Shown piece after piece: positions 49,432-62,249 of a stretch of 64,000 nt of DNA. Every line of letters begins with the position of its first letter. Position 1 is the stretch's first letter. The DNA is from an uncultured Candidatus Saccharibacteria bacterium (GTDB lineage Bacteria > Patescibacteriota > Saccharimonadia > Saccharimonadales > CAZARM01), in assembly GCA_964463635.1 (NCBI GenBank), contig CAYXCB010000001.1, positions 7,526 through 71,525 on the forward strand. Reading direction: 5' to 3'. The notes under the pieces are model-generated. The model did no database searches, was not told the origin of the DNA, and worked only from the letters and a program-made list of their open reading frames with translations. The translations under genes and the position numbers were made by a program.

Positions 49432-50283
49432 CTAGACGCAGGAATAGTTGTAGTCTAGGCCTTTAGACACAAATTGTGTCAGGACAACTTTGCCATTTGC
49501 AGTCAGAGGAGCTGCTTTACATGCTTGCTGAGCGGTTTTTTGGCTGGCTCCACCAGGACGCCAGTTATTTAAACCGTTCAAGTTACTGCCAGGAGTAACC
49601 GAACTGCCGACAATCTGACTCCATTGCGCGCCTGTAGAATATAGGCCGACTCGCCCGCCGAGTGACTTAAAGTACTCGGTCATGCCTTCCAGTACTGCTA
49701 CGTTGCTCTGATGATCAAATGTGCTGCCGGATAGTTTCCAAGTGTTTTCAGTCTCGACATCAAGCCACCATATATAGGCGTCTGGCGAAGTACTTACAGC
49801 AGCTTGGACGGCTGCCGGTTGGAAGCGGTCGCGCACATCTTCCAGCGAGCGGTTCCAGCCATATTGCCAGGCGCAGGCTAGCGAATCGCTGCCGTCGCAT
49901 GGGCCATGAGGATTTGCTGTTACATTGCCAGCCGGGTCGATATTACTTGTTGGCCATGAAGCTGTGCCTAAACCGCCAGGGTTGGCAGTATTTACATATA
50001 GCTGCAGTTTTTCTTGAGGCGTCCCGCCAACAGACTGCTTAGCCCAGATAAGCTGATCTTTTAGGCATGGGTTAGTAGTGGTGGCTAACCCGCCATTGAC
50101 GCCAACAATGCCGAATGCCTGCGTCTTAGGCAGTGTTTTGCCGCATTGCGGCCAAGACACGTCAATCCCTAGCGGTGTAGCAGAGCCTCCGCCGCTGACA
50201 GGTTTAGCCGCCATAGCGCTGGGGGCTATTAAAATAACAGATATAAAACTTAAAAACAAACCAAGTAAAAGGTTTTTCTTCAT
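49432..50283 (-). CDS. secreted glycoside-hydrolase-like protein (GH25/DUF1906-like), paralogue of 9766..10791
   Basis: Signal peptide MKKNLLLGLFLSFISVILIAPSAMA; GIDVSWPQCG...FGIVGVNGG...WWLDVE blocks shared with the paralogue. Confidence 0.5.
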   Translation of the reverse strand: MKKNLLLGLFLSFISVILIAPSAMAAKPVSGGGSATPLGIDVSWPQCGKTLPKTQAFGIVGVNGGLATTTNPCLKDQLIWAKQSVGGTPQEKLQLYVNTANPGGLGTASWPTSNIDPAGNVTANPHGPCDGSDSLACAWQYGWNRSLEDVRDRFQPAAVQAAVSTSPDAYIWWLDVETENTWKLSGSTFDHQSNVAVLEGMTEYFKSLGGRVGLYSTGAQWSQIVGSSVTPGSNLNGLNNWRPGGASQKTAQQACKAAPLTANGKVVLTQFVSKGLDYNYSCV

Positions 50284-50513
50284 CAGGACAGTATATCAAA
50301 CCAGGCTTTCCGACCAAGTGATTAGTCACCATATGCAATTCTAGCTAGTTAAGTTTCTGGTTGCTTCGTTGCTGTTTCTATGTACGGATTCATCACGGGA
50401 TCAAACGTGCAAGTATTGCATATATGTAGATCGTCAGATATTATTTAAGATAAGCGAAATGTGATCACTAGATCTCCTACTAAAACTAAAAAGAAAGGTA
50501 GGTTACCCTACTA

Positions 50514-51386
50514 ATGCAATATATGAAAAAACTTGGTGTCAAAACTTTATTGGCAGTATTTGCCGTGGCCTTTGCCATAGCTCTAAATGGGTCAGTTGTT
50601 GTACGTGCGGGCACTTCGCCCACCCTAAACAACCTACTAAGTTATTCCGTTCTAGGTGGCGCAGAAGTGACTTGTACCGGCTCGACCACCATAACCGGGG
50701 ATGTGGGAGTTAGCCCTGGCACTTCAATTTCTGGCTTTCCTAGTCCGTGTGTTGTTGGCCCTCCGGGCACAACGCATTCCAATGACGCCAGCGCCATAGC
50801 GGCTCAAGCCGAAAACCTCGTTGTCTTTGGCGCTCTTGACCAAACCTGTGATCAGACTTTTGGCGCGGTAGATCTGACTGCAACCTTTCCATCAGGTGTC
50901 GGACCTGGTGTCTATTGTTCCACCAGCAGCTTCTCGCTGAGCGGGAATCTAACCCTTACCGGGGCTGGTGTATGGATTTTTAAAACAGTATCTACATTAA
51001 TTACCTCACCAGGTTCATCTGTTACCGGTGGCGACCCGTGTAATGTATGGTGGAGAATCGGCAGCTCAACGACTCTCGATACGACTACTTCATTCGTAGG
51101 AAATGTTTTATCGCAAAACGGCGCTAACGCTATGAATACCGGCGCGACCTTGAACGGTCGATTCCTGGGACTAGCTGCTGCTACGGTGACGCTGGATGAT
51201 AATACGATCTCGGGACCAACATGCGTGCCTTCGTTTGGTCCAGGTGGTAGTACTACGCCAGGACTGCCCAATACGGGGATCAGTCCTGAGGACACAAGCA
51301 GCGCCTCGTGGAACATTCTCATACCCGCTGGGGTTGTCATTGCTCTAGTATCGCTCTACCTAGTTCGAAAGAAACGCGCACTATAA
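50514..51386 (+). CDS. LPXTG-anchored surface protein
   Basis: Signal peptide; C-terminal LPNTG, hydrophobic helix, RKKRAL tail; immediately upstream of a sortase gene. Confidence 0.65.
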   Translation: MQYMKKLGVKTLLAVFAVAFAIALNGSVVVRAGTSPTLNNLLSYSVLGGAEVTCTGSTTITGDVGVSPGTSISGFPSPCVVGPPGTTHSNDASAIAAQAENLVVFGALDQTCDQTFGAVDLTATFPSGVGPGVYCSTSSFSLSGNLTLTGAGVWIFKTVSTLITSPGSSVTGGDPCNVWWRIGSSTTLDTTTSFVGNVLSQNGANAMNTGATLNGRFLGLAAATVTLDDNTISGPTCVPSFGPGGSTTPGLPNTGISPEDTSSASWNILIPAGVVIALVSLYLVRKKRAL

Positions 51387-51410
51387 GCCAAGCATCGGTA
51401 AGGCTTATGC

Positions 51411-52025
51411 ATGAATTTATCGAAAACATCGTTTAAACGAACAGTATTCCTGCTAATCATTGTAGGATTTGCGTTCTCTCCAGCGTTTATTCGCTATTTC
51501 AGCTTAAGACCGACTCAGAACGACTCCGCGCTACTTGTAGTAGACCCGCCTACTATTGATAAAGAAAAGGTAAACCCGGGTTTGCCGACCCGTCTTAAGA
51601 TTCCAAAAATCAACGTTGATGCAGCTATTGAGCATGTGGGGCTTACTTCCGGGGGAGATATGGATATACCAAAAGGCCCAACTACTGCAGGCTGGTTCAG
51701 CCAGGGACCACGCCCTGGGGCAAATGGCAGTGCCGTGATTGACGGACATTTTGGATATAGAAATGACATACCGGCCATATTCGATAATCTTCATACCTTG
51801 CAGAAGGGGGACAATATTTATGTCGAAGATGATAAAGGAGCAATTATTATTTTCGTGGTTCGGGAGTCACGGCAATACAGTCCAAATGAAAATACCTCAA
51901 GTATATTTACTTCAAACGACGGCAAAACCCATCTAAACCTCATAACCTGCCAGGGAATTTGGAGTAATAGCCAAAGAAGCTACTCTAAGCGCTTAGTAGT
52001 ATTTGCTGATAAAGAAATAGAATAA
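51411..52025 (+). CDS. sortase (transpeptidase)
   Basis: N-terminal membrane anchor, catalytic His region and LITCQG (TLxTC) catalytic Cys motif. Confidence 0.7.
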   Translation: MNLSKTSFKRTVFLLIIVGFAFSPAFIRYFSLRPTQNDSALLVVDPPTIDKEKVNPGLPTRLKIPKINVDAAIEHVGLTSGGDMDIPKGPTTAGWFSQGPRPGANGSAVIDGHFGYRNDIPAIFDNLHTLQKGDNIYVEDDKGAIIIFVVRESRQYSPNENTSSIFTSNDGKTHLNLITCQGIWSNSQRSYSKRLVVFADKEIE

Positions 52026-52828: not shown

Positions 52829-53350
52829 CTAGAGTAATTTTATTAGTCCACTGTTTGTAATTTGAATCCACAGTGCGTCTTTACTTACCCCATACCGCTT
52901 CGCAAGTTCCTCAATATCTTTGATTCCAGCCTTTATATCAGCTCGTAGAAACTTAGTCGGCATTAACAGATATGCCGCAAAGTGGTCGGCTTCTTGCTCA
53001 TCAAAACTCTTGTAGCCGTGATGAAGGCTAGAGTTACCCATAACGTGTCCGAAGTAGAGATGGCCTATTTCGTGTGCAACCGAGAATCGTTGCCGTACAA
53101 CAGCCCTATTCTTATTATAAAGAATTACTAGTTGACCATTCCGATTAACAAGCATTGCGTCACGCTCCTTACCAGTGATACTTTCATCGGCTGGAACGAT
53201 TACGGCACCAAACTCATCTTTAATCAGCTTGTATATCTCATTGAGCCTGACAGGAGCTTGAGTAATTTTAGCGGATTTTAATAGTGCAAGGGTCTTATGC
53301 CTTGCTTCTGTGAACTTGGCTTCGTTAGTTGTCTGATTGCTTTCGTCCAT
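52829..53350 (-). CDS. ImmA/IrrE-family metallo-endopeptidase
   Basis: HEIGHLYFGH (HExxH) in a ~170-aa protein overlapping an upstream XRE repressor gene. Confidence 0.75.
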   Translation of the reverse strand: MDESNQTTNEAKFTEARHKTLALLKSAKITQAPVRLNEIYKLIKDEFGAVIVPADESITGKERDAMLVNRNGQLVILYNKNRAVVRQRFSVAHEIGHLYFGHVMGNSSLHHGYKSFDEQEADHFAAYLLMPTKFLRADIKAGIKDIEELAKRYGVSKDALWIQITNSGLIKLL

Positions 53351-53696
53351 CTTGGTTCTTTGACAGTTTCAACGCGTCAATAAACGATTCAACTCTTTTG
53401 ACGTCGTCTTGGTCTAGGTGTTCATCTGCTCTTAGAGCAATTTGTACGCTTGGCTGTGGGCTTGTTGTCGTGTCGCCTTTTATAAAGTAATTTACGTCAC
53501 GGTGAAGAAGCCTAGCTATCTCCTCCAAGTCGCTTATTTGAACTCTACGTTCACCAGCTTCAATGAGGGATATGGCAGTAGGCGACTTGTAGTCCAGCTT
53601 TTGAGCTAGTTCAGTCTGTGTTAGGCCCTCGGCTTCACGAGCTTTCTTGATTCTTGACCCAATCTGAGCGTACTTCTTTACTTCGTTGTTTTCCAT
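53325..53696 (-). CDS. XRE-family helix-turn-helix transcriptional regulator
   Basis: LTQTELAQKLDYKSPTAISLIEAGER HTH_3 motif. Confidence 0.8.
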   Translation of the reverse strand: MENNEVKKYAQIGSRIKKAREAEGLTQTELAQKLDYKSPTAISLIEAGERRVQISDLEEIARLLHRDVNYFIKGDTTTSPQPSVQIALRADEHLDQDDVKRVESFIDALKLSKNQDGRKQSDN

Positions 53697-53729
53697 ATTG
53701 ATATATTACATTTATCAGAAAGTATTGAC

Positions 53730-53765
53730 AAGCATTTATCGTTTTGATAAATTGATAATTACAAA
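53730..53765 (+). promoter_or_regulatory. candidate promoter (TTGACA-N17-TAAATT) with TTGATAA direct repeats in divergent XRE / DUF2188-TIR region
   Basis: Consensus -35 and near-consensus -10 with 17-nt spacer ahead of the DUF2188-TIR-membrane operon; operator-like repeats overlap. Confidence 0.4.
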
Positions 53766-53805
53766 CTAAACTCTTGAGGGTAAAACAAGGGGGAAAGGAC
53801 ACAAA

Positions 53806-54027
53806 ATGGCACGAAAAGTTTTTCACGTAGTACCTTACGGCACAAACTGGCAGGTCAAGCACAATGGTCAGGTACTTAGTAACCACACCTATAAGGCAAA
53901 CGCTATCAGCTCAGGGCAACTAGTAGCTAAAGCGAACCAGCCAAGCCAACTCGTAGTACATCGGGCTGATGGAACTATTGAGTTTGAGTACACATACGGT
54001 AACGACCCCTACCCACCAGTTGGGTAG
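53806..54027 (+). CDS. DUF2188-domain protein
   Basis: 73 aa; HVVPYGTNWQVKHNG...YGNDPYPP matches the DUF2188 pattern; GGGGAAAGG Shine-Dalgarno. Confidence 0.6.
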   Translation: MARKVFHVVPYGTNWQVKHNGQVLSNHTYKANAISSGQLVAKANQPSQLVVHRADGTIEFEYTYGNDPYPPVG

Positions 54028-54063
54028 GTCGTTCTTGCATTTAAGGGTAAAATATGGAGAGTT

Positions 54064-54642
54064 ATGAGTTTAGCGGACGAATTATATAGAGCTATGTACG
54101 GCCAGGAGCCAACTGTACCTAAGCCAATTAAGTGGAGCGGTTTCCTGCCGCCAGCGAAAGCTCAGCCTAAGCCAGGTTTTGTGCGAATAGCAAAACCGCA
54201 GCCACGCCCTTTCGTCAGAATTGCCAAGCCGAAGGTGTTTGTTAGCTTTGATTACGAGAATGACCGTCTTTATAAACAGGCATTGGATATGTGGGACGCC
54301 AATAAGCGTTTTGATTTTAGCTTTAAGAGTAATACACCCCAAGAAATCCAGTCCGAAAGCGTAGAAAGGGTAAAAGCAGTTCTGACAACAAAAGTAAAAG
54401 CGTCCAGTCACGTTGTAGTATTGGTTGGTAAATACGCCAACGAGCTGCACAGCGATAGTCAAAAAATTGGTTTTCGTAATTGGATAAACTTTGAAGTTTA
54501 CCAAGCACGTTATTATAAGAAGAAGGTTGTTGTTGTAATGCTAAGCCCGTACAACACACTACCTGAATGGTTGCGTGGTTCAGGTGCAACCCTAGTTAAC
54601 AGCTTCAACGAAAAAGAAATAATACAGGCCCTAAGTAAGTAG
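54064..54642 (+). CDS. TIR-like domain protein (ThsB / MTH538 DUF1863-like) with N-terminal Pro/Lys-rich tandem repeat
   Basis: KVFVSFDYEND beta-A motif (compare ThsB RVFFSFHYQD), central VVVLVG strand, and NWINFEV W-x3-E motif (putative catalytic Glu); N-terminal FVRIAKPQPRP / FVRIAKPK repeat. Confidence 0.6.
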   Translation: MSLADELYRAMYGQEPTVPKPIKWSGFLPPAKAQPKPGFVRIAKPQPRPFVRIAKPKVFVSFDYENDRLYKQALDMWDANKRFDFSFKSNTPQEIQSESVERVKAVLTTKVKASSHVVVLVGKYANELHSDSQKIGFRNWINFEVYQARYYKKKVVVVMLSPYNTLPEWLRGSGATLVNSFNEKEIIQALSK

Positions 54643-54647
54643 GCAAT

Positions 54648-55277
54648 ATGGCAAAACTAAGCGAAGATACAAAACTTGAAGTTCTGAGTGACCATTATAA
54701 GGAAACCGTTAACGATTTTAAGAAAACAGGCAAAAGTCGTGACCTAAACTTTTTTGCGGTACTTATATTCCTAGGTGTGATGACGTTCCAGTTCGTTTCT
54801 CCACACCAGTCACAAAGCATACTTACACAAGTAATTAACTCCCGCTTGGATATAGATGCAGCTCTTAGCATTAACCTGCTTGGTTCACTGATTTGGCTTG
54901 CATTGCTTTTCGCTGCGATTCGCTATTTTCAAGCCGTCATTAACCTTGAAAAACAGTACAACTACAGCCACGACCTTGAAGACTTATTAGCTAAAAGCTA
55001 TGACAATAAAGCGTTTACCCGTGAAGGCAAATCTTACCTGAAAGATTATCCTGTATTTTCAAAATGGGTACATTTTGTCTATCGTAAGCTGTTCCCGCTA
55101 CTCTTGGTTATTGCATTAACTGTAAAAATACTTGGAGAGTGGTTAGCCAATAAAACAAATGCGTTACCTCTAGCACTAGACTCTGTCATTTACGGAGCAC
55201 TGTTAGTGTCAATAGTCCTCTATGTCTACTCGTTGCAAAAGACTGAAAAGCACACAGAAAAAGACGTTAAAAAATAG
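54648..55277 (+). CDS. 4-TM membrane protein, candidate effector partner of the TIR protein
   Basis: Starts 5 nt after the TIR stop; four predicted TM helices with a ~60-aa cytoplasmic loop; no Macro/SIR2/SLOG motif recognisable. Confidence 0.5.
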   Translation: MAKLSEDTKLEVLSDHYKETVNDFKKTGKSRDLNFFAVLIFLGVMTFQFVSPHQSQSILTQVINSRLDIDAALSINLLGSLIWLALLFAAIRYFQAVINLEKQYNYSHDLEDLLAKSYDNKAFTREGKSYLKDYPVFSKWVHFVYRKLFPLLLVIALTVKILGEWLANKTNALPLALDSVIYGALLVSIVLYVYSLQKTEKHTEKDVKK

Positions 55278-55288
55278 CCCGACTTTAT

Positions 55289-55834
55289 TTATAGATTTGT
55301 TTCGTTGGAGAGCTTTATTCTGACTTTTTCAGTCATTGTATTGGTGCTGACATAGCCAAGTGCGTCTACATCTGGGTCGTAGAGTTCAATCATATCTAGG
55401 TCATTGCGTGGAAATACCCTCGCACCTTTTATTACTTTGCCGTCAATTAGCGACTGTTTTAATTCGCCGTATTGCTCTGGTTCAAGGTAGAAATCAACAT
55501 CTCCAACGTGGTTGCGATAAGGGTCTGGCTTACGAATATATAAATGAGTGTAGGTAGTTTCTGGGACATCGTCTTGAGCGGGAATAACAATAGGTTCGTG
55601 TAGAGTAAAGTATTTTTGATTTGGGTCATCAGATGGTTCGGTAAGTTCTTTACGAATTGCTAAAAGCCTTTCGTATTCGTCGTCGTAATGACAAAACACG
55701 CCCATATTGCCAGCATTAGGCAAGTATTTATCAAACGACTGTTTGCAGAGCTTATAACAAGCAAAGTGAATGTACTTTGTGGCTTCAACTAACTGGTCAT
55801 TGTTTTCTATGGGGCTAAATCTATAAAGTTTCAT
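55289..55834 (-). CDS. hypothetical protein
   Basis: 181-aa ORF, last gene of the minus-strand redox operon; no motif recognised. Confidence 0.4.
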   Translation of the reverse strand: MKLYRFSPIENNDQLVEATKYIHFACYKLCKQSFDKYLPNAGNMGVFCHYDDEYERLLAIRKELTEPSDDPNQKYFTLHEPIVIPAQDDVPETTYTHLYIRKPDPYRNHVGDVDFYLEPEQYGELKQSLIDGKVIKGARVFPRNDLDMIELYDPDVDALGYVSTNTMTEKVRIKLSNETNL

Positions 55835-55836
55835 TG

Positions 55837-56415
55837 CTAAAATCCTGGGTCGTTGAAGTAATCAATACTAAATATGTCAGAAGCCTCCGCAAAGTTATTA
55901 CGCTCCCACTGCATAAAGGGCTTGGGATTGCCTTTGGGTGATATTTCTTCGTTATAGAACTTGGGATTAACTTTAGCTTTGGCGTATCCACCAATTACCA
56001 TTAAGTGGTTGCCGCCTACATCTTTCGGTAAACCTATAATCTTGTATTCCACCCAACCCAAAGCGTCTTTTAGGACTGGTCCGTGTTCTGAAAAGTCCAA
56101 GTCTAAGCTATCGTTAAACTCCTCAATTTTATCTTTGCCGGAGTTGTAACCCGAATACTTTTGGCCGAGTTTCCATACTAGCTCAAGTTGCTCTCGGTGA
56201 GGAACAGATACAGTAAAGGCTTTAGCTGTTTTCAGGCTTTCGGCAGTAATCCAAGGTTTATAGACAGCAATCATCACCATACTAGGTTCGGTACTTATTG
56301 AGGTGATGTTATTGATTGGAATAATGTTTTGGCGACCATCTTCTGAAACAGTGCCAATTAGCACCACCAATCTAGGAGCAAGAATCCTGTGTATTTTGTC
56401 TGTTACTTCAATCAT
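55837..56415 (-). CDS. flavin reductase-like (FMN-binding split-barrel) protein
   Basis: Flavin_Reduct-like pattern (LVVLIGTVSEDGRQNIIPI...S.EPSMV..V). Confidence 0.55.
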   Translation of the reverse strand: MIEVTDKIHRILAPRLVVLIGTVSEDGRQNIIPINNITSISTEPSMVMIAVYKPWITAESLKTAKAFTVSVPHREQLELVWKLGQKYSGYNSGKDKIEEFNDSLDLDFSEHGPVLKDALGWVEYKIIGLPKDVGGNHLMVIGGYAKAKVNPKFYNEEISPKGNPKPFMQWERNNFAEASDIFSIDYFNDPGF

Positions 56416-56426
56416 AACTACTCTTC

Positions 56427-57167
56427 TTACCCTAGAACTTTTAAGCTCATACCGCCATCAATTACCAAAACTTCACCACATACGGCGTCATTCTTTGCAA
56501 GGAAAACTATACCGTCTGCAATTTCACTTGGCTCAATCCAACGGTTAATGAGATGTCCTGCGGCTTGTTTGGCTTTATATTCATCGTCCATATTGCCCCA
56601 CATTGGCGTCAGTGTTCTACCGGGTGCAACTGAATTTATGAGTATCTCTGGTGCAAGTGCTTTAGCTAGATTTTTCATATATGAATCAAGTGCCGCTTTC
56701 ATAGATGAGTAGGCAATGGCGTCTGGTCGTCCGTGGCCCAACTTTCCGTGGATTGATGAGACGAACACAATCTTGCCATTTTTCATCAACTTACGGGCTT
56801 CATTTGTGATACGGACTTGTGCAAGGAAATTAGTCTCAAAGACATTCTGAAAAGCATCAAGGCTTTCGGGTCTATCGTCTTCGTCAAATAAACCCGCACT
56901 GTTTACCAAAATATCAATTGCAGAAAACTTTTCCTTTATCTTTGTGAACATAATCTCAACTTCTTCCGGCTTTGAAATGTTCGCCTGTACAGTCAACGTT
57001 TCTACCGAGTTTTTAGCAGCTAGATTGGCCACTTCCTCTGCGGCCTTAACATCGTGGGAGTAGTTAATAATAACATTGGCACCTTCCTTAGCCATTGCCT
57101 CTACTGTGGCTCGGCCTATACCTTTAGAACCACCTGTTACTAATACTGTTTTGCCTTGCAATTTCAT
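56427..57167 (-). CDS. SDR-family oxidoreductase
   Basis: TGGSKGIG Rossmann motif and catalytic YSSMK (YxxxK). Confidence 0.8.
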   Translation of the reverse strand: MKLQGKTVLVTGGSKGIGRATVEAMAKEGANVIINYSHDVKAAEEVANLAAKNSVETLTVQANISKPEEVEIMFTKIKEKFSAIDILVNSAGLFDEDDRPESLDAFQNVFETNFLAQVRITNEARKLMKNGKIVFVSSIHGKLGHGRPDAIAYSSMKAALDSYMKNLAKALAPEILINSVAPGRTLTPMWGNMDDEYKAKQAAGHLINRWIEPSEIADGIVFLAKNDAVCGEVLVIDGGMSLKVLG

Positions 57168-57170
57168 AGA

Positions 57171-57644
57171 CTATCCTTTCGCTCCACCATTCCACTCAAG
57201 TTTATACTTCTGACCTGACGTGCCGCCAAAGCGACCAAACACATACCAGTTAGTTACGCTAATCTTGTAGAACTGATGACCCTCATCATTTGAGGCTTCT
57301 TCAACAATATCATCTGTTATTTTCAGGCGAGCCTTTAGACATTCTGCTGCCGTATTTTGCTCATCACCTACTTCAAGCAATTCTGCCTTGCCCTCAAAGT
57401 AAACACCAACAACAGGGTCGCCTAGCTCATATTTATCAATGATATTTCCAGCTACGTTTGAATTGTTAGCAATTTCTTGGCTATGTCGTCTTGATTTTAA
57501 TGAACGGAAATACAGACTGAGGCTATCGTCATACGCAAAGTGGACTTCACAAACCCAAGGAGCATTATCGCTAACCGTTGCTAACGACATATGTATCGTC
57601 TTCTCAATAAACTCACGCACAACTTGTTCTATATCAACACTCAT
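57171..57644 (-). CDS. pyridoxamine 5'-phosphate oxidase-like FMN-binding protein
   Basis: 157-aa PNPOx-like split barrel (MSLATVSDNAPWVCEVHFAYD pattern). Confidence 0.55.
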   Translation of the reverse strand: MSVDIEQVVREFIEKTIHMSLATVSDNAPWVCEVHFAYDDSLSLYFRSLKSRRHSQEIANNSNVAGNIIDKYELGDPVVGVYFEGKAELLEVGDEQNTAAECLKARLKITDDIVEEASNDEGHQFYKISVTNWYVFGRFGGTSGQKYKLEWNGGAKG

Positions 57645-58600
57645 TTATTCACTCTCGTTGGAAATTCGTTTTTTGTTGCGCTAACCATATTATCTGTCCA
57701 TAGGACTACCGAGTTGTGCATAGATTCATAGGTAGTCCACGCATAAGCAGGAGCAGCCCAGACATTACCATTAAACTTCGTAAACTCGTTGGGTTTTCCC
57801 TCAAAGCCGTAGCCAAATAAATCTTCCTTAGCCACCATACCAAGCACCTGTTCTTGGTTAAACAAACCGTGTGCAATATCTACTAAGATAGCCGACTTCT
57901 TCATTGATTTAATGTGTTCTTCTGTAATCAACGCCAGCGTTTCAGGATTTTTAGCTGCTGTCGGAAAGATGACATCTGCCGTTTCTAGTAATTGCTCAAG
58001 TGATACTTCTTCGTAAGCGTCATTCGTTGAAGACCTTGACCAGTAAACTACATTCATATCAAGCCCCTTACAGGCTTCGGCAATCGCACTACCGATATGC
58101 CCTAAACCGATAATTCCAGCCGTCTTGCCCTTGAGCTGTACGCCACGATACTTCATAAAATCTTTGTCAAAATCCAGCGGGTAGTTATCTTTAATTAGTC
58201 TAGGAGTTTGCCGAGCTAAGTTAAACATCATCATAACCGCCCACTCTGCAACGGCTTGCGTAGAGAAGTTTACGATTTGGCAGATTGGTATATTACGCTC
58301 GTTAGCAACATCTTGCTCAACCCATTCAAAGCCGGTAGAAGCTATTAGAATGCCTTTGAGATTTGGAATATCTTTGTAGTCTGCGCTGCTTAGTTTCCAG
58401 CTAACATAATCGGGATTCAAGCACAGCAACCGTTCTTCGTCACCTTCAAATAATGCTTTGCAGTCGCTAATCGGTTCAATCTCTTTTGTAATTACCAATT
58501 CAAGTCCACTGTCTTTCAACTTACTTAAAAGCTCGTCGGTGATTAGTTCGTCCCAAAGCGGGTCAAATATAAATGCTTTCATACCGTAACTATACAACAT
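57641..58600 (-). CDS. D-isomer-specific 2-hydroxyacid dehydrogenase family protein
   Basis: NAD-binding GKTAGIIGLGHIGSAIA, catalytic-domain fold length 319 aa. Confidence 0.8.
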   Translation of the reverse strand: MLYSYGMKAFIFDPLWDELITDELLSKLKDSGLELVITKEIEPISDCKALFEGDEERLLCLNPDYVSWKLSSADYKDIPNLKGILIASTGFEWVEQDVANERNIPICQIVNFSTQAVAEWAVMMMFNLARQTPRLIKDNYPLDFDKDFMKYRGVQLKGKTAGIIGLGHIGSAIAEACKGLDMNVVYWSRSSTNDAYEEVSLEQLLETADVIFPTAAKNPETLALITEEHIKSMKKSAILVDIAHGLFNQEQVLGMVAKEDLFGYGFEGKPNEFTKFNGNVWAAPAYAWTTYESMHNSVVLWTDNMVSATKNEFPTRVNK

Positions 58601-59187: not shown

Positions 59188-60042
59188 TTGCGTATAATTA
59201 CGTTTATGACTGGCCGAGAAAAAATACTTATTACAATAAACCTGATTGACCACTATTATCAGCAATCGTTATCAGGCAATACAGTTAAGTTTGATTCCAA
59301 TGATTTAGACAATGCCGGTATCCGACTTGAAGAGCAAAACAACATTTTAGACGCCCTCAAAGAAGACTACGAATGCATTGAGTACTCATACACAAAGCCT
59401 TATTCAGATTTAACAGATGATGACAATCTTCCTAGTACTCTCGTTCAGCACTTACATATGAAATCAGGTGCAGTAGACGTAAAATATTACTATCTAGATT
59501 ATAAAATAAGGTCGCAGAAAGATTTCATCATTACTATTCTTGATAAGTTTGATGAGGTTAAGAATAAAGCAAAAGCAGACGACTTAGAAAAATATCAGTA
59601 TCATACAACTGCGCTGTCAGATAAACCACTTGGTACACCTATAGTGGATAAAAATTCCTCAGAAATTATATATGTGGCCTTTAGGAATAATGTTCTCATT
59701 ATTGGTCTTAGGCCTGGTATGTCCGTTCCCTTAGGTAAGCCACTTAGATACGACAGTCCACCTTACAACTTTATGCAATATATCCTCAAGAACCCGAACA
59801 GACCCATAAGCGTACACGAGATACAAGAAAAGGTTGAAGGCTGCAAAACAAAAACCGACCTGAGTGAACTTGTTAGAAATTGCCATTTTAACAAAGAGTT
59901 AAAGAGAATATTCTTTGAAAGAACAACACAAAAGACTATACGCTTTACTCCTTGGAGAGAGTTAAATGGCGAGCAACTGGAATGGTTCATTAACTGGATA
60001 GAAACCACCCGTGAGCAAATCGCAACAAACCGTGAAGAATAA
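59188..60042 (+). CDS. hypothetical protein
   Basis: 284-aa ORF; followed by an intrinsic terminator. Confidence 0.45.
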   Translation: MRIITFMTGREKILITINLIDHYYQQSLSGNTVKFDSNDLDNAGIRLEEQNNILDALKEDYECIEYSYTKPYSDLTDDDNLPSTLVQHLHMKSGAVDVKYYYLDYKIRSQKDFIITILDKFDEVKNKAKADDLEKYQYHTTALSDKPLGTPIVDKNSSEIIYVAFRNNVLIIGLRPGMSVPLGKPLRYDSPPYNFMQYILKNPNRPISVHEIQEKVEGCKTKTDLSELVRNCHFNKELKRIFFERTTQKTIRFTPWRELNGEQLEWFINWIETTREQIATNREE

Positions 60043-60322: not shown

Positions 60323-60469
60323 ATGAAAAAGAAGACAGATTGGCGTCCGTACTATTTATTCAAATACACGGCGGAAAAAAGAGTTTGTTATCTGTATTAC
60401 AGAAACATACGAACAAAAGAAGTTAAGAAAATTGGAAAGATAGAGGTACAAAAAGATGTTAAGAACTAA
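60323..60469 (+). CDS. small basic hypothetical protein (48 aa) overlapping the recombinase start; possible excisionase/directionality factor
   Basis: AAGGAGG Shine-Dalgarno 7 nt upstream of ATG; stop overlaps the recombinase ATG. Confidence 0.3.
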   Translation: MKKKTDWRPYYLFKYTAEKRVCYLYYRNIRTKEVKKIGKIEVQKDVKN

Positions 60470-62093
60470 AGCAATCGCACTATGTCGTGTATCAACTAAG
60501 GGTCAAATGCTAGACGGCAACCTTGAACCACAAAAGGAGAATGTAGAGAAAGCAGCTAATATTTTAGATACAGACCTAGTAAAAGTCTGGGCATTAGCCG
60601 TATCTAGTCGTAAGGGTAAAAACGTAAAGCGTAAAGATTTGCACGAAATGCGTGACTACTGCAAAAGATTCAAATCAGTTAAGTACCTAATAATAGACGA
60701 GCCAGACAGATTTATGCGCTCAATAAAAGAGTATTACTGGTGGAAAGTGGAATTTGAGCTTGTTGGTGTACAGATACGCTTTTCAAACAATCCAACTGCT
60801 GACCCCGAAGATGATAGGGTTGTATTTGATGAGCTGATAGATGTCTATCGTGCTGAGCAAAGTAACAATGAACGAATTAAGAAAACTCCAGGTAAAATGA
60901 TGGCAAAGATTCGGGCTGGCTACTATCCAAGTAATCCGCACACTGGCTATAAGAAGTCTGATATACCAGGTTTGCACGAACCAGATGAGCCAAACTGGTC
61001 AGCTATGCGAAGTACGTTCAAGGAAATGGTATCTGGTGAACTAACAGTTAGCGAGGGTCTTAAAGAAGTCACCAAACGTGGACTACGCACTAAGAACTAT
61101 GGACCGAAAGCTGTAGGTGGCAAAACAATTGATATGTTCCGCTGGAAAGCCCTTATGTGCGACCCGTACTATTACGGATTCCTTAAACTTGGCGATTGGT
61201 CAGAGGAAAATGCGAACGGTTTACATAAGACAATGATTACAAAGGAGGAACACGAAATACTTGTAGCGTTGGCAAAGAATAAGGGTAAACGATTTATAGT
61301 GAACCGAAACAATCCTGAATTCCCGTTCTCAAATGAGGCGGAATGTACGAGGTGTGTATTTTCTGATAATCCTTACCCTAGGTTAGTTGGCTACTGGCAA
61401 AATAATGGAGCAAAGAAAAACAGACTTAGGTATAGGCGTTACAGATGCAGAGACTGCAATCTTGGAGTGAGGCAAGAGGCACTCCACGAAGGCATAACGG
61501 AGGAGCTATCACAGCTCCTCTTGTCTTTAGAACAGAAAGAAAAGCTAAAGGAACACGCCCGAAAGATATGGCGGTCATACGAAAAAGTAAGGATTGAACA
61601 GGCTAGAATAGCCTTAGGACGACTTACAATACTGAAAGAAAAGAAGAACAAGTTCATTGAGAGCTTAGTAGCCAACCCAAACCTTGCAGAAGACATTCAA
61701 GAATCAATTGAACAGATTAAAAGTGATATTGTTGTAGCCGAACAGGAAGCGTCAGAAGCTCAAGACTTTGAAAAGGACTTCATAGAGTTTATAGGCTTTG
61801 CTTTTGACTTTATGGACAACTTAAAGGGTAAATGGTGGGAGTTAGACAAGGACACTATGAAAATATGTAAACAAGTGTTATTTCCGTGCGGAATCCAGCT
61901 ACTCCCAAATAAAAAAGTTTATATACCTAAAATTAGCCTAGTTTACGGGGGTGATGATAACAAAAAAGCCCCCGAAGGGGCTGATTTTACTAGACTGGAG
62001 GGCCCAGTGGGACTCGAACCCACGACACTCTGCTTAAGAGGCAGATGCTCTAACCAACTGAGCTATGGGCCCATATTCCAATTGTACATGTAG
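60456..62093 (+). CDS. large serine recombinase (resolvase domain + recombinase domain + zinc ribbon + coiled coil)
   Basis: N-terminal IALCRVSTKGQ (catalytic Ser), DEPDRFMRS, recombinase-domain block, CTRC...CRDC zinc ribbon, C-terminal coiled coil; last ~30 codons overlap tRNA-Lys on the opposite strand. Confidence 0.8.
   Translation: MLRTKAIALCRVSTKGQMLDGNLEPQKENVEKAANILDTDLVKVWALAVSSRKGKNVKRKDLHEMRDYCKRFKSVKYLIIDEPDRFMRSIKEYYWWKVEFELVGVQIRFSNNPTADPEDDRVVFDELIDVYRAEQSNNERIKKTPGKMMAKIRAGYYPSNPHTGYKKSDIPGLHEPDEPNWSAMRSTFKEMVSGELTVSEGLKEVTKRGLRTKNYGPKAVGGKTIDMFRWKALMCDPYYYGFLKLGDWSEENANGLHKTMITKEEHEILVALAKNKGKRFIVNRNNPEFPFSNEAECTRCVFSDNPYPRLVGYWQNNGAKKNRLRYRRYRCRDCNLGVRQEALHEGITEELSQLLLSLEQKEKLKEHARKIWRSYEKVRIEQARIALGRLTILKEKKNKFIESLVANPNLAEDIQESIEQIKSDIVVAEQEASEAQDFEKDFIEFIGFAFDFMDNLKGKWWELDKDTMKICKQVLFPCGIQLLPNKKVYIPKISLVYGGDDNKKAPEGADFTRLEGPVGLEPTTLCLRGRCSNQLSYGPIFQLYM
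61996..62072 (-). tRNA. tRNA-Lys (anticodon CUU)
   Basis: GGGCCCATAGCTCAGTTGGTTAGAGCATCTGCCTCTTAAGCAGAGTGTCGTGGGTTCGAGTCCCACTGGGCCCTCCA: full cloverleaf, anticodon loop CTCTTAA, encoded CCA. Confidence 0.8.
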
Positions 62094-62202: not shown

Positions 62203-62249
62203 CACCCTGCTTAAGAGGCAGGTGCTCTAACCAGCTGAGCTACTGGCCC
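62203..62249 (-). pseudogene. truncated tRNA-Lys(CUU)-like 5' half (acceptor 5' strand, D-arm, anticodon arm only)
   Basis: GGGCCAGTAGCTCAGCTGGTTAGAGCACCTGCCTCTTAAGCAGGGTG: ~85% identical to the intact tRNA-Lys 5' half; no T-arm or 3' acceptor follows. Confidence 0.5.

Follow-up and report, generated by a model that had tools for sequence, protein, structure and literature searches.

A ThsB-type TIR protein paired with a four-helix membrane protein: a probable Thoeris-type signalling module carried by a putative mobile element in a Saccharimonadia genome

The stretch of DNA under analysis (the window, 64,000 nucleotides of contig CAYXCB010000001.1 from an uncultured Candidatus Saccharibacteria bacterium) contains a gene for a ThsB-type TIR protein, closely followed by a gene for a small protein with four predicted transmembrane (TM) helices, here called 4TM. 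We conclude, with a probability of about 0.6, that this is a Thoeris-type TIR signalling module of the catalogued '4TM' class, a probable anti-phage system that is probably carried as mobile-element cargo. The original prediction, which was made from the sequence alone, held that such an architecture had not been described. This has to be corrected, as it is listed as the putative effector class '4TM' by Yirmiya et al. (bioRxiv 10.64898/2025.12.03.692087, December 2025), who surveyed ~600 million proteins and arrived at 29 putative Thoeris types, with types V to XI validated; within their Table S1 and Fig. 1C no entry of the class was selected for testing. The unit is a genuine member of a predicted Thoeris class, and not a new architecture. 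The points that are new here are a conserved cytoplasmic module in the 4TM protein, the arrangement of the genes as a five-gene cassette, its low-GC recombinase context, and the pairing of the same membrane family with a TIR-STAND protein in Vibrio.

In the window the module is a cassette of five genes, in which a peptidase and a repressor are divergent from an operon of DUF2188, TIR and 4TM genes. The components are as follows (lengths in amino acids, aa).

52829..53350, minus strand: M78 zinc metallopeptidase, CapP/ImmA-like, 173 aa (Pfam Peptidase_M78, E 1.3e-18)
53325..53696, minus strand: XRE-family helix-turn-helix (HTH) repressor, CapH/ImmR-like, 123 aa (Pfam HTH_3, E 6e-13)
53697..53805, both strands: divergent control region, 109 bp (promoter scan, repeat search and sequence reading)
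53806..54027, plus strand: DUF2188 protein, 73 aa, first gene of the operon (PF09954, E 5e-14)
54064..54642, plus strand: ThsB-type TIR protein, 192 aa (PF08937 ThsB_TIR, E 3e-10)
54064-54228, within the TIR gene: residues 1-55, a lineage-specific N-terminal extension
Residues 56-192 of the same protein: TIR domain, with the catalytic-position E144 in NWINFE
54648..55277, plus strand: 4TM protein, 209 aa, predicted signal-gated membrane effector (hydropathy and AlphaFold2 (AF2) model)

The peptidase and repressor genes overlap by 26 nt. Reading of the open reading frames (ORFs) places 36 nt between the DUF2188 and TIR genes, and 5 nt between the TIR stop codon and the 4TM start. The coordinates, gaps, motifs and promoter of the original prediction were all correct when compared with ORF, motif and promoter scans, and its DUF2188 gene upstream of the TIR gene and its adjoining XRE/ImmA-type switch were both borne out by the Pfam matches above. 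PADLOC, which had been suggested as a check, returned ThsB1, PDC-S16, capH and capP for the unit and no match for 4TM. The module had also been called minimal, which is incomplete: in this lineage the conserved TIR–4TM core is embedded in a five-gene cassette with DUF2188 and two regulators.

By Pfam, by PADLOC (ThsB1, E 4e-12) and by its predicted fold the 192-aa protein is a ThsB-type TIR protein, and it is predicted to be the signal synthase. An AF2 model built from 54 homologues has a pLDDT of 81 overall, rising above 90 across residues 101-190. In the PDB, Foldseek ranks the ThsB structures 9b7d, 8wcf, 8v6t and 6lhy as the closest to this model, followed by the SARM1 TIR and nucleoside deoxyribosyltransferases, so that the anticipated TIR fold was obtained. 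The motifs KVFVSFDYEND and NWINFEV are both present in the translation, and in an alignment made with published Thoeris TIRs E144 of the second (NWINFE) is placed opposite the Glu of the WVRYE motif of B. cereus MSX-D12 ThsB. From published work on ThsB we take the latter to be the catalytic Glu. The W-x3-E motif is kept in 120/120 TIR homologues and in 75/75 distinct TIRs adjacent to 4TM, and the invariant residues are F62, D63, E94, G122, H129, I135, G136, W140 and E144. Family matches, fold and invariant motif agree that this is a ThsB-like TIR with a Glu at the catalytic position, as had been proposed. Three of the invariant residues (H129, I135 and G136) lie in a clade-specific insert of 10 residues (x-H-x-D-x3-I-G) located directly before the catalytic helix. 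The TIRs of types I, VII and X in the alignment are without it, and lying where it does the insert could alter the product.

The N-terminal extension begins with a short conserved helix (LADELYRAMYG) and continues as a Pro/Lys-rich linker, with the sequence FVRIAKP occurring twice. It is confined to homologues of the Saccharimonadia clade; the TIRs of other clades are 139-150 aa in length. The extension may be a sensing or docking element. A wrong start call was considered as its origin and rejected, because both the extension and its helix motif are kept in the Saccharimonadia homologues.

The 4TM protein has hydrophobic segments at residues 33-51, 73-91, 148-166 and 175-193. Its AF2 model (pLDDT 84, pTM 0.80) is all-helical, with helices at residues 6-50, 52-67, 75-117, 125-132, 139-166 and 172-198. 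Counts of Lys and Arg over the whole family indicate a predicted N-in/C-in topology, with means of 4.9 at the N-terminus, 5.8 in the loop between TM2 and TM3 and 2.3 at the C-terminus, compared with 1.8 in loop 1 and 0.5 in loop 3. We analysed conservation over 128 representatives with a median identity of 32% to the window protein, counting a residue as conserved if it was kept in at least 85% of them. The residues that emerge are H16, Y17 and R31 in the N-terminal part, W83, Y93, Q95, K/R102, Y104, Y106 and E111 in the middle, and R125, E126, G127, Y130, Y145, P150 and Y192 in the later part. Nearly all of these fall in the N-terminal helix or the TM2-TM3 insert, and H16, Y17, R31, the set from Y93 to Y106, E111, the set from R125 to Y130, Y145 and P150 are predicted to be cytoplasmic or at the membrane boundary. 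The N-terminal helix and residues 92-150 constitute a strongly conserved cytoplasmic module that is rich in Tyr, Arg and Glu, and its conservation suggests that it is likely to be the site of signal binding or gating. The model has its lowest confidence at residues 120-135, coinciding with the conserved AFTREGKSYL motif. The original prediction described 4TM as having no recognisable ligand-binding domain; no known domain is present, but given the conserved module the statement went too far.

Comparison with known families gives no match for the window 4TM protein in Pfam (even at E ≤ 1), NCBIfam, PADLOC or PHROGs. In particular no Macro, SIR2 or SLOG signature is found by Pfam, in agreement with the original reading. 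When 134 homologues (61 + 73) were each scanned against Pfam we obtained only scattered sub-threshold membrane-protein noise, and SLATT, DUF2270, DUF6650, Macro and SLOG are all absent from the families listed for them. A profile of the 4TM family found nothing under E 0.36 among PDB sequences, and a Foldseek comparison of the model with viral structures gave none at E ≤ 0.001. Structure searches returned generic helical bundles only, and the structural match to DUF2270 is non-significant (E 1.4, TM-score 0.37). The family nonetheless has many members of its own. A word-indexed search found 136 homologues, mostly in Saccharimonadia and other candidate-phyla bacteria, and a profile search found 827 clusters (at 50% identity) at E ≤ 0.001, 298 of them at E ≤ 1e-30, none of the 827 being covered by Pfam, NCBIfam or PADLOC. 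Nearly all of the best 150 profile matches listed are stand-alone proteins of ~200 aa.

How general is the pairing of the two proteins? The adjacency of TIR and 4TM recurs in ~100 independent loci, more than is expected by chance. A scan based on 4TM, taking one genome per species, gave 23 loci that span Saccharimonadia, Paceibacterota, Omnitrophota, Gammaproteobacteria, Poribacteria, Anaerolinea, Desulfobacteraceae and others. In 21 of the 23, down to a 4TM identity of 31%, the gene directly upstream of 4TM on the same strand encodes a TIR of this clade; the two exceptions are an orphan 4TM (locus L020) and a gene fragment (L028). A scan based on the TIR gave 80 metagenome loci, of which three end <300 nt past the TIR, and in all 77 that could be evaluated 4TM is directly downstream. 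The co-occurrence that the original prediction proposed to look for is therefore found in both scans. The coupling is also as tight as had been supposed. In 90 full-length pairs the 4TM start codon follows the TIR stop codon at a median distance of ~0 nt, and the distance is ≤25 nt in 86 of them. Across the same pairs the distances within the TIR and 4TM families are correlated (mirror-tree r 0.56, Mantel p ≤ 0.001). The flanking genes vary between loci, and TIR plus 4TM is thus the conserved core, supporting the idea of a conserved two-gene module with Thoeris-like logic.

The closest relative of the window unit (L110, 84% identity in 4TM) shares all five genes with it, in identical order. 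A more distant example is found in a metagenome-assembled genome of Paceibacterota (L023, 4549-7155; JALHQL010000001.1), where a LexA-like Peptidase_S24 repressor is followed by DUF2188, a ThsB TIR, 4TM and a second ThsB-type TIR. Here a different damage-responsive (LexA-like) repressor replaces the regulator pair in front of the DUF2188-TIR-4TM operon. A three-gene, two-TIR version occurs in L003 (3292-5636), in which a 402-aa TIR_2 protein gene overlaps the start of the ThsB TIR gene, and the latter overlaps the 4TM gene; a gene for a HipA-like kinase adjoins this unit.

The membrane family is not restricted to ThsB-type partners. On a plasmid of V. parahaemolyticus (NZ_CP034287.1, 40429-43642; L113, 3252-6465) a 196-aa protein is encoded 1 nt upstream of an 873-aa protein that combines TIR_2 with a STAND NTPase, and a recombinase gene adjoins the pair. 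The 196-aa protein is a remote relative of 4TM (hhalign probability 99.2%, E 1.7e-19, 181 aligned columns). The partners of the membrane family thus include a second TIR architecture, unrelated to the first and found as one locus type, in a Vibrio branch with only two close relatives. It is the sole match when two members of the 4TM family are compared with plasmids by tblastn.

The same two sequences gave no match in 50,697 phage records. For the window TIR, on the other hand, there is a full-length match to the phage protein family phrog_6988 (E 1e-20), so that phages may have this TIR clade but lack its membrane partner.

What places the unit in Thoeris is the combination of a ThsB-type TIR having a Glu at the catalytic position with a conserved neighbouring candidate effector gene in one operon. 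Its link to the '4TM' class runs through the TIR sequences rather than those of the effectors. The window TIR is 38-51% identical to the TIRs listed for the class, with SFDYEND, H-x-D-x3-IG and NWINFE in common. TIRs that are 59-97% identical to the reference TIR of the class have this 4TM family downstream in 77/77 evaluable loci; one of them (L030) is 97% identical to the entry ga0080702_100003420, and a member of the family follows it. The contigs named in the preprint's entries are absent from the matches of our metagenome scan, and it is on these 59-97% identical TIRs that the class link rests. In the figure and table of the preprint the class is entered without sequence analysis, signal, mechanism or test. 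The window copy differs from it in the 55-aa TIR extension, the DUF2188 gene and the divergent HTH/M78 pair, and in belonging to a Saccharimonadia-type genome (candidate phyla radiation); Patescibacteria are unmentioned in the preprint's main text.

Among the characterized systems the nearest is type VII, comprising ThsB and the SLATT effector ThsH, with canonical cyclic ADP-ribose (cADPR) as signal. According to the table of the preprint the TIRs of the '4TM' class belong to cluster 2727267812, which also holds the type VII TIR of B. licheniformis SCCB 37, and all three type VII systems verified in defence, this one included, are SLATT-associated (bioRxiv 10.64898/2025.12.03.692087). ThsH is moreover a small membrane protein that is thought to oligomerize upon binding the signal. 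However, SLATT is found neither for the window 4TM protein nor among the Pfam families listed for its 134 relatives, a comparison that could miss a very remote relationship, and the characterized type VII TIRs, which are without the 10-residue insert, share only 25-26% identity with that of the window. Type V (ThsB and ThsF, signalling by 3'cADPR) likewise has a small multi-TM effector without a classical ligand-binding domain, and signal pockets of ThsF are predicted in the cytoplasmic parts of the oligomer. Yet ThsF has three TM helices where the window protein has four, the window protein has no match to PF10028 (DUF2270), and the TIR clusters differ. Type II (ThsB and a TM-Macro effector, signalling by His-ADPR) also joins a ThsB-type TIR to a membrane effector, and two of our best fold matches, 8v6t and 8wcf, are type II ThsB structures from E. 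coli. The window 4TM protein is without a Macro domain, and therefore its sensing module must differ from that of type II. The SLOG sensor, with or without SIR2, that is present in the effectors of types I, III and IX is not found in it either. A membrane effector without a classical ligand-binding domain has precedent in three validated types, namely V (3-TM DUF2270), VII (SLATT) and X (ion channel) (bioRxiv 10.64898/2025.12.03.692087).

These comparisons suggest how the module might operate. At rest, the XRE/CapH-like repressor would bind a palindrome at the operon promoter and keep expression of DUF2188, thsB and 4TM low. By analogy with related switches, DNA damage or infection would activate the M78 CapP/ImmA-like peptidase, which would cleave the repressor and so raise expression. 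Once a phage is sensed, Glu144 of the ThsB-type TIR would turn NAD+ into a signal derived from ADP-ribose (ADPR); the enzyme family is shown by the matches above, and the putative product has its nearest precedent in canonical cADPR, which three SLATT-associated TIRs are reported to make (bioRxiv 10.64898/2025.12.03.692087). The signal would then bind the Tyr/Arg-rich cytoplasmic module of 4TM and cause it to oligomerize or open, and the resulting breach of the membrane would lead to abortive infection. DUF2188 would be an accessory tied to the regulatory front end, and not the main effector.

A number of observations weigh against this scheme. One intact locus among the 23 (L020, 4918-6600) carries 4TM without a TIR nearby, the gene being preceded by a 313-aa ORF at a gap of 145 nt. 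According to the table of the preprint, the '4TM' class is not represented in the 30 operons that Yirmiya et al. (bioRxiv 10.64898/2025.12.03.692087) put to the test, and for unverified types the authors caution that the TIR itself may act as an effector by depleting NAD+. The low identity of the window TIR to those of type VII, together with its insert, means that the product may not be cADPR. Lastly, the M78 peptidase is without the GAF domain of CapP, and may rather serve to regulate element excision, as an ImmA-type protein.

The warning about NAD+ depletion leads to an alternative in which the roles are reversed, so that the TIR is the NAD+-depleting killer and 4TM a membrane sensor or anchor that switches it on in response to phage attack, such as injection or envelope stress. 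We consider this unlikely, although it is the main one of the alternatives. The preprint states the possibility for all unverified types, and CBASS, Pycsar and pAgo systems include TIRs that act as NADase effectors. A protein–protein interface could account equally well for the conserved cytoplasmic module of 4TM, and tight translational coupling would suit a stoichiometric complex. Yet in the preprint's table the TIR cluster is grouped with signalling ThsBs, including a producer of cADPR, and the window TIR is a short, single-domain ThsB like those of the validated Thoeris systems. In types II, V, VII and X it is the small multi-TM partner that serves as the effector. Moreover, in Vibrio the TIR-STAND partner of the 4TM family brings its own sensor domain, and for this reason we favour 4TM as the downstream effector.

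If 4TM is the effector, one may go further and suppose that it is a new nucleotide-gated type, having as its receptor the helical cytoplasmic module of ~85 residues and responding perhaps to an ADPR-derived signal that has not been described. We offer this as a tentative proposal that could well be wrong. If it were true, the Saccharimonadia cassette would be a damage-inducible version in which DUF2188 tunes the threshold, and the Vibrio pairing would imply that a separate membrane effector can also receive signals from NLR-like TIR proteins.

The regulatory front end of the cassette can be examined in the region between the divergent genes and at the end of the DUF2188 gene, where we find the following elements.

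53725-53730, plus strand: promoter, TTGACA, N17 and TGaTAAATT ending at 53753, with 10/12 consensus matches and a TG extension
53731-53726, minus strand: promoter, TTGTCA, N17 and TAATAT ending at 53703 (promoter scan)
53735-53751: perfect palindrome TTTATC-GTTTT-GATAAA, lying across the spacer and -10 box of the plus-strand promoter (inverted-repeat search)
54008..54028, plus strand: GC-rich hairpin of 8 pairs that spans the DUF2188 stop codon and is followed by a weak T tail (terminator-like scan)

Promoters that match the consensus are weak evidence when taken alone (9 sites in the region, compared with 6.9 expected). The palindrome is a candidate operator, and a related half-site is present as a direct repeat at 53710-53720. 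The hairpin might possibly act as a partial terminator or attenuator of read-through into the TIR gene, in a region where terminator-like sites number 3 compared with 2.9 expected by chance.

The two regulators resemble the CapH/CapP pairs described by Lau et al. (bioRxiv 10.1101/2022.04.27.489752). Such pairs are reported to be always upstream of, and opposite to, the operon that they control, and the examples include operons containing DUF2188. The window layout matches this, as its HTH and M78 genes are divergent from an operon that begins with DUF2188 and share a control region with it. The HTH protein matches PADLOC capH (E 2e-12, profile positions 6-100 of 103) as well as a phage RstR-like family of NCBIfam (E 4e-11). 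The M78 protein matches capP (E 7e-27) with a visible HEIGH motif, and by analogy is predicted to cleave the neighbouring repressor. The likeness is incomplete, however. CapP has a C-terminal GAF domain (bioRxiv 10.1101/2022.04.27.489752), whereas the 173-aa window peptidase covers only positions 5-152 of the 242 in the capP profile, that is its N-terminal two-thirds, and lacks the GAF domain. In this it is nearer to the shorter ImmA type.

The surroundings of the cassette point to mobility. From ~51.5 to ~62 kb the GC content is 0.36-0.43, compared with 0.47-0.49 on either side, and this stretch is flanked by housekeeping genes (FolD, a racemase and a Mur ligase on the left, DHFR on the right). 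Two features lie at its right end.

60456..62093, plus strand: large serine recombinase, 545 aa (Pfam Resolvase, E 4e-11)
61996-62072, minus strand: tRNA-Lys, overlapped by the 3' end of the recombinase gene

A partial copy of the tRNA-Lys gene is present at 62203-62249 (47 nt, 89% identical, 177 nt from the intact gene). It is the only result of a search for att-like direct repeats, which found no matching repeat at the left end. The recombinase is likely to be the mobility gene of an element that carries the module. The original prediction had placed the unit on an integrative element; a recombinase at tRNA-Lys and the low GC content speak in favour of this, and an integrative element is plausible.

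The low-GC setting of the module, and the closeness of its short, GAF-less M78 peptidase to ImmA-type regulators rather than to CapP, are also what would be expected if the genes served the element itself. The XRE/ImmA pair would then be the switch for element induction, and DUF2188-TIR-4TM an addiction or superinfection-exclusion cargo, possibly activated by contact. Serine recombinases are found near the module not only in the window but also adjoining the TIR–4TM pair in L001, L110, L111 and L112, and upstream of it in L023. However, in many loci, including L001, L003, L005 and L111, the pair occurs without these regulators, and the invariant catalytic Glu argues for enzymatic signalling. 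We judge a function in element maintenance or exclusion to be distinctly improbable as an account of the pair; defence cargo is in any case usual on mobile elements, and the two explanations largely overlap.

There remains the role of DUF2188. The window protein matches the PADLOC candidate PDC-S16 (PDLC04942) over its full length (E 4e-17), and also phrog_3220 (E 7e-12). In L110, and also in the distant L023, its gene is found at the corresponding place. It is present in 1/23 loci of the genome scan, and otherwise only in the window and L110. Because of this rarity DUF2188 behaves as an accessory in a swappable, damage-responsive front end, and not as part of the core effector. The preprint's table does list DUF2188 as a putative Thoeris effector, and together with the PDC-S16 match and the position upstream of the TIR in the window, L110 and L023 this might make it the true signal-responsive effector, with 4TM in an unrelated or auxiliary role; but its associated TIRs there belong to a different cluster (2507529800), it is found repeatedly together with HTH/peptidase regulators ahead of unrelated systems, and it is rarely adjacent to a TIR clade beside which 4TM is near-universal, so that as main effector it was dropped as very improbable.

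If the Thoeris reading of the TIR–4TM unit were validated, it would constitute a further Thoeris type with its own effector family. The signal used by the '4TM' class bears on the number of TIR-derived immune signals, and the defined cytoplasmic module of 4TM provides a handle suitable for mutagenesis. With a hidden Markov model of the 4TM family, defence-finding tools could recognize the system. The window cassette further links control of the CapH/CapP type and DUF2188 to Thoeris, and extends the examples of the class to Saccharimonadia-type bacteria.

Some neighbouring genes deserve a brief description. A 181-aa ORF (55289-55834, minus strand) converges on the 4TM gene with a gap of 11 nt, and has no match in Pfam, PHROGs, PADLOC or NCBIfam. 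Between the defence module and the recombinase, and so within the low-GC stretch, there is a run of four ORFs (55837-58600, minus strand), the first flavin reductase-like and the last a D-2-hydroxyacid dehydrogenase; such metabolic-looking genes are an unusual cargo to find beside a defence module. A 284-aa ORF follows at 59188-60042 (plus strand), without a match in Pfam, PHROGs or PADLOC. On the left, 49432-52025 encodes a secreted 283-aa protein, a 290-aa surface protein that ends in LPNTG and a TM anchor, and a third protein, of 204 aa, in which a sortase-like ...LITCQG motif is seen. Judged from their translations, these genes, which lie just outside the low-GC stretch, have the appearance of a sortase-substrate pair.

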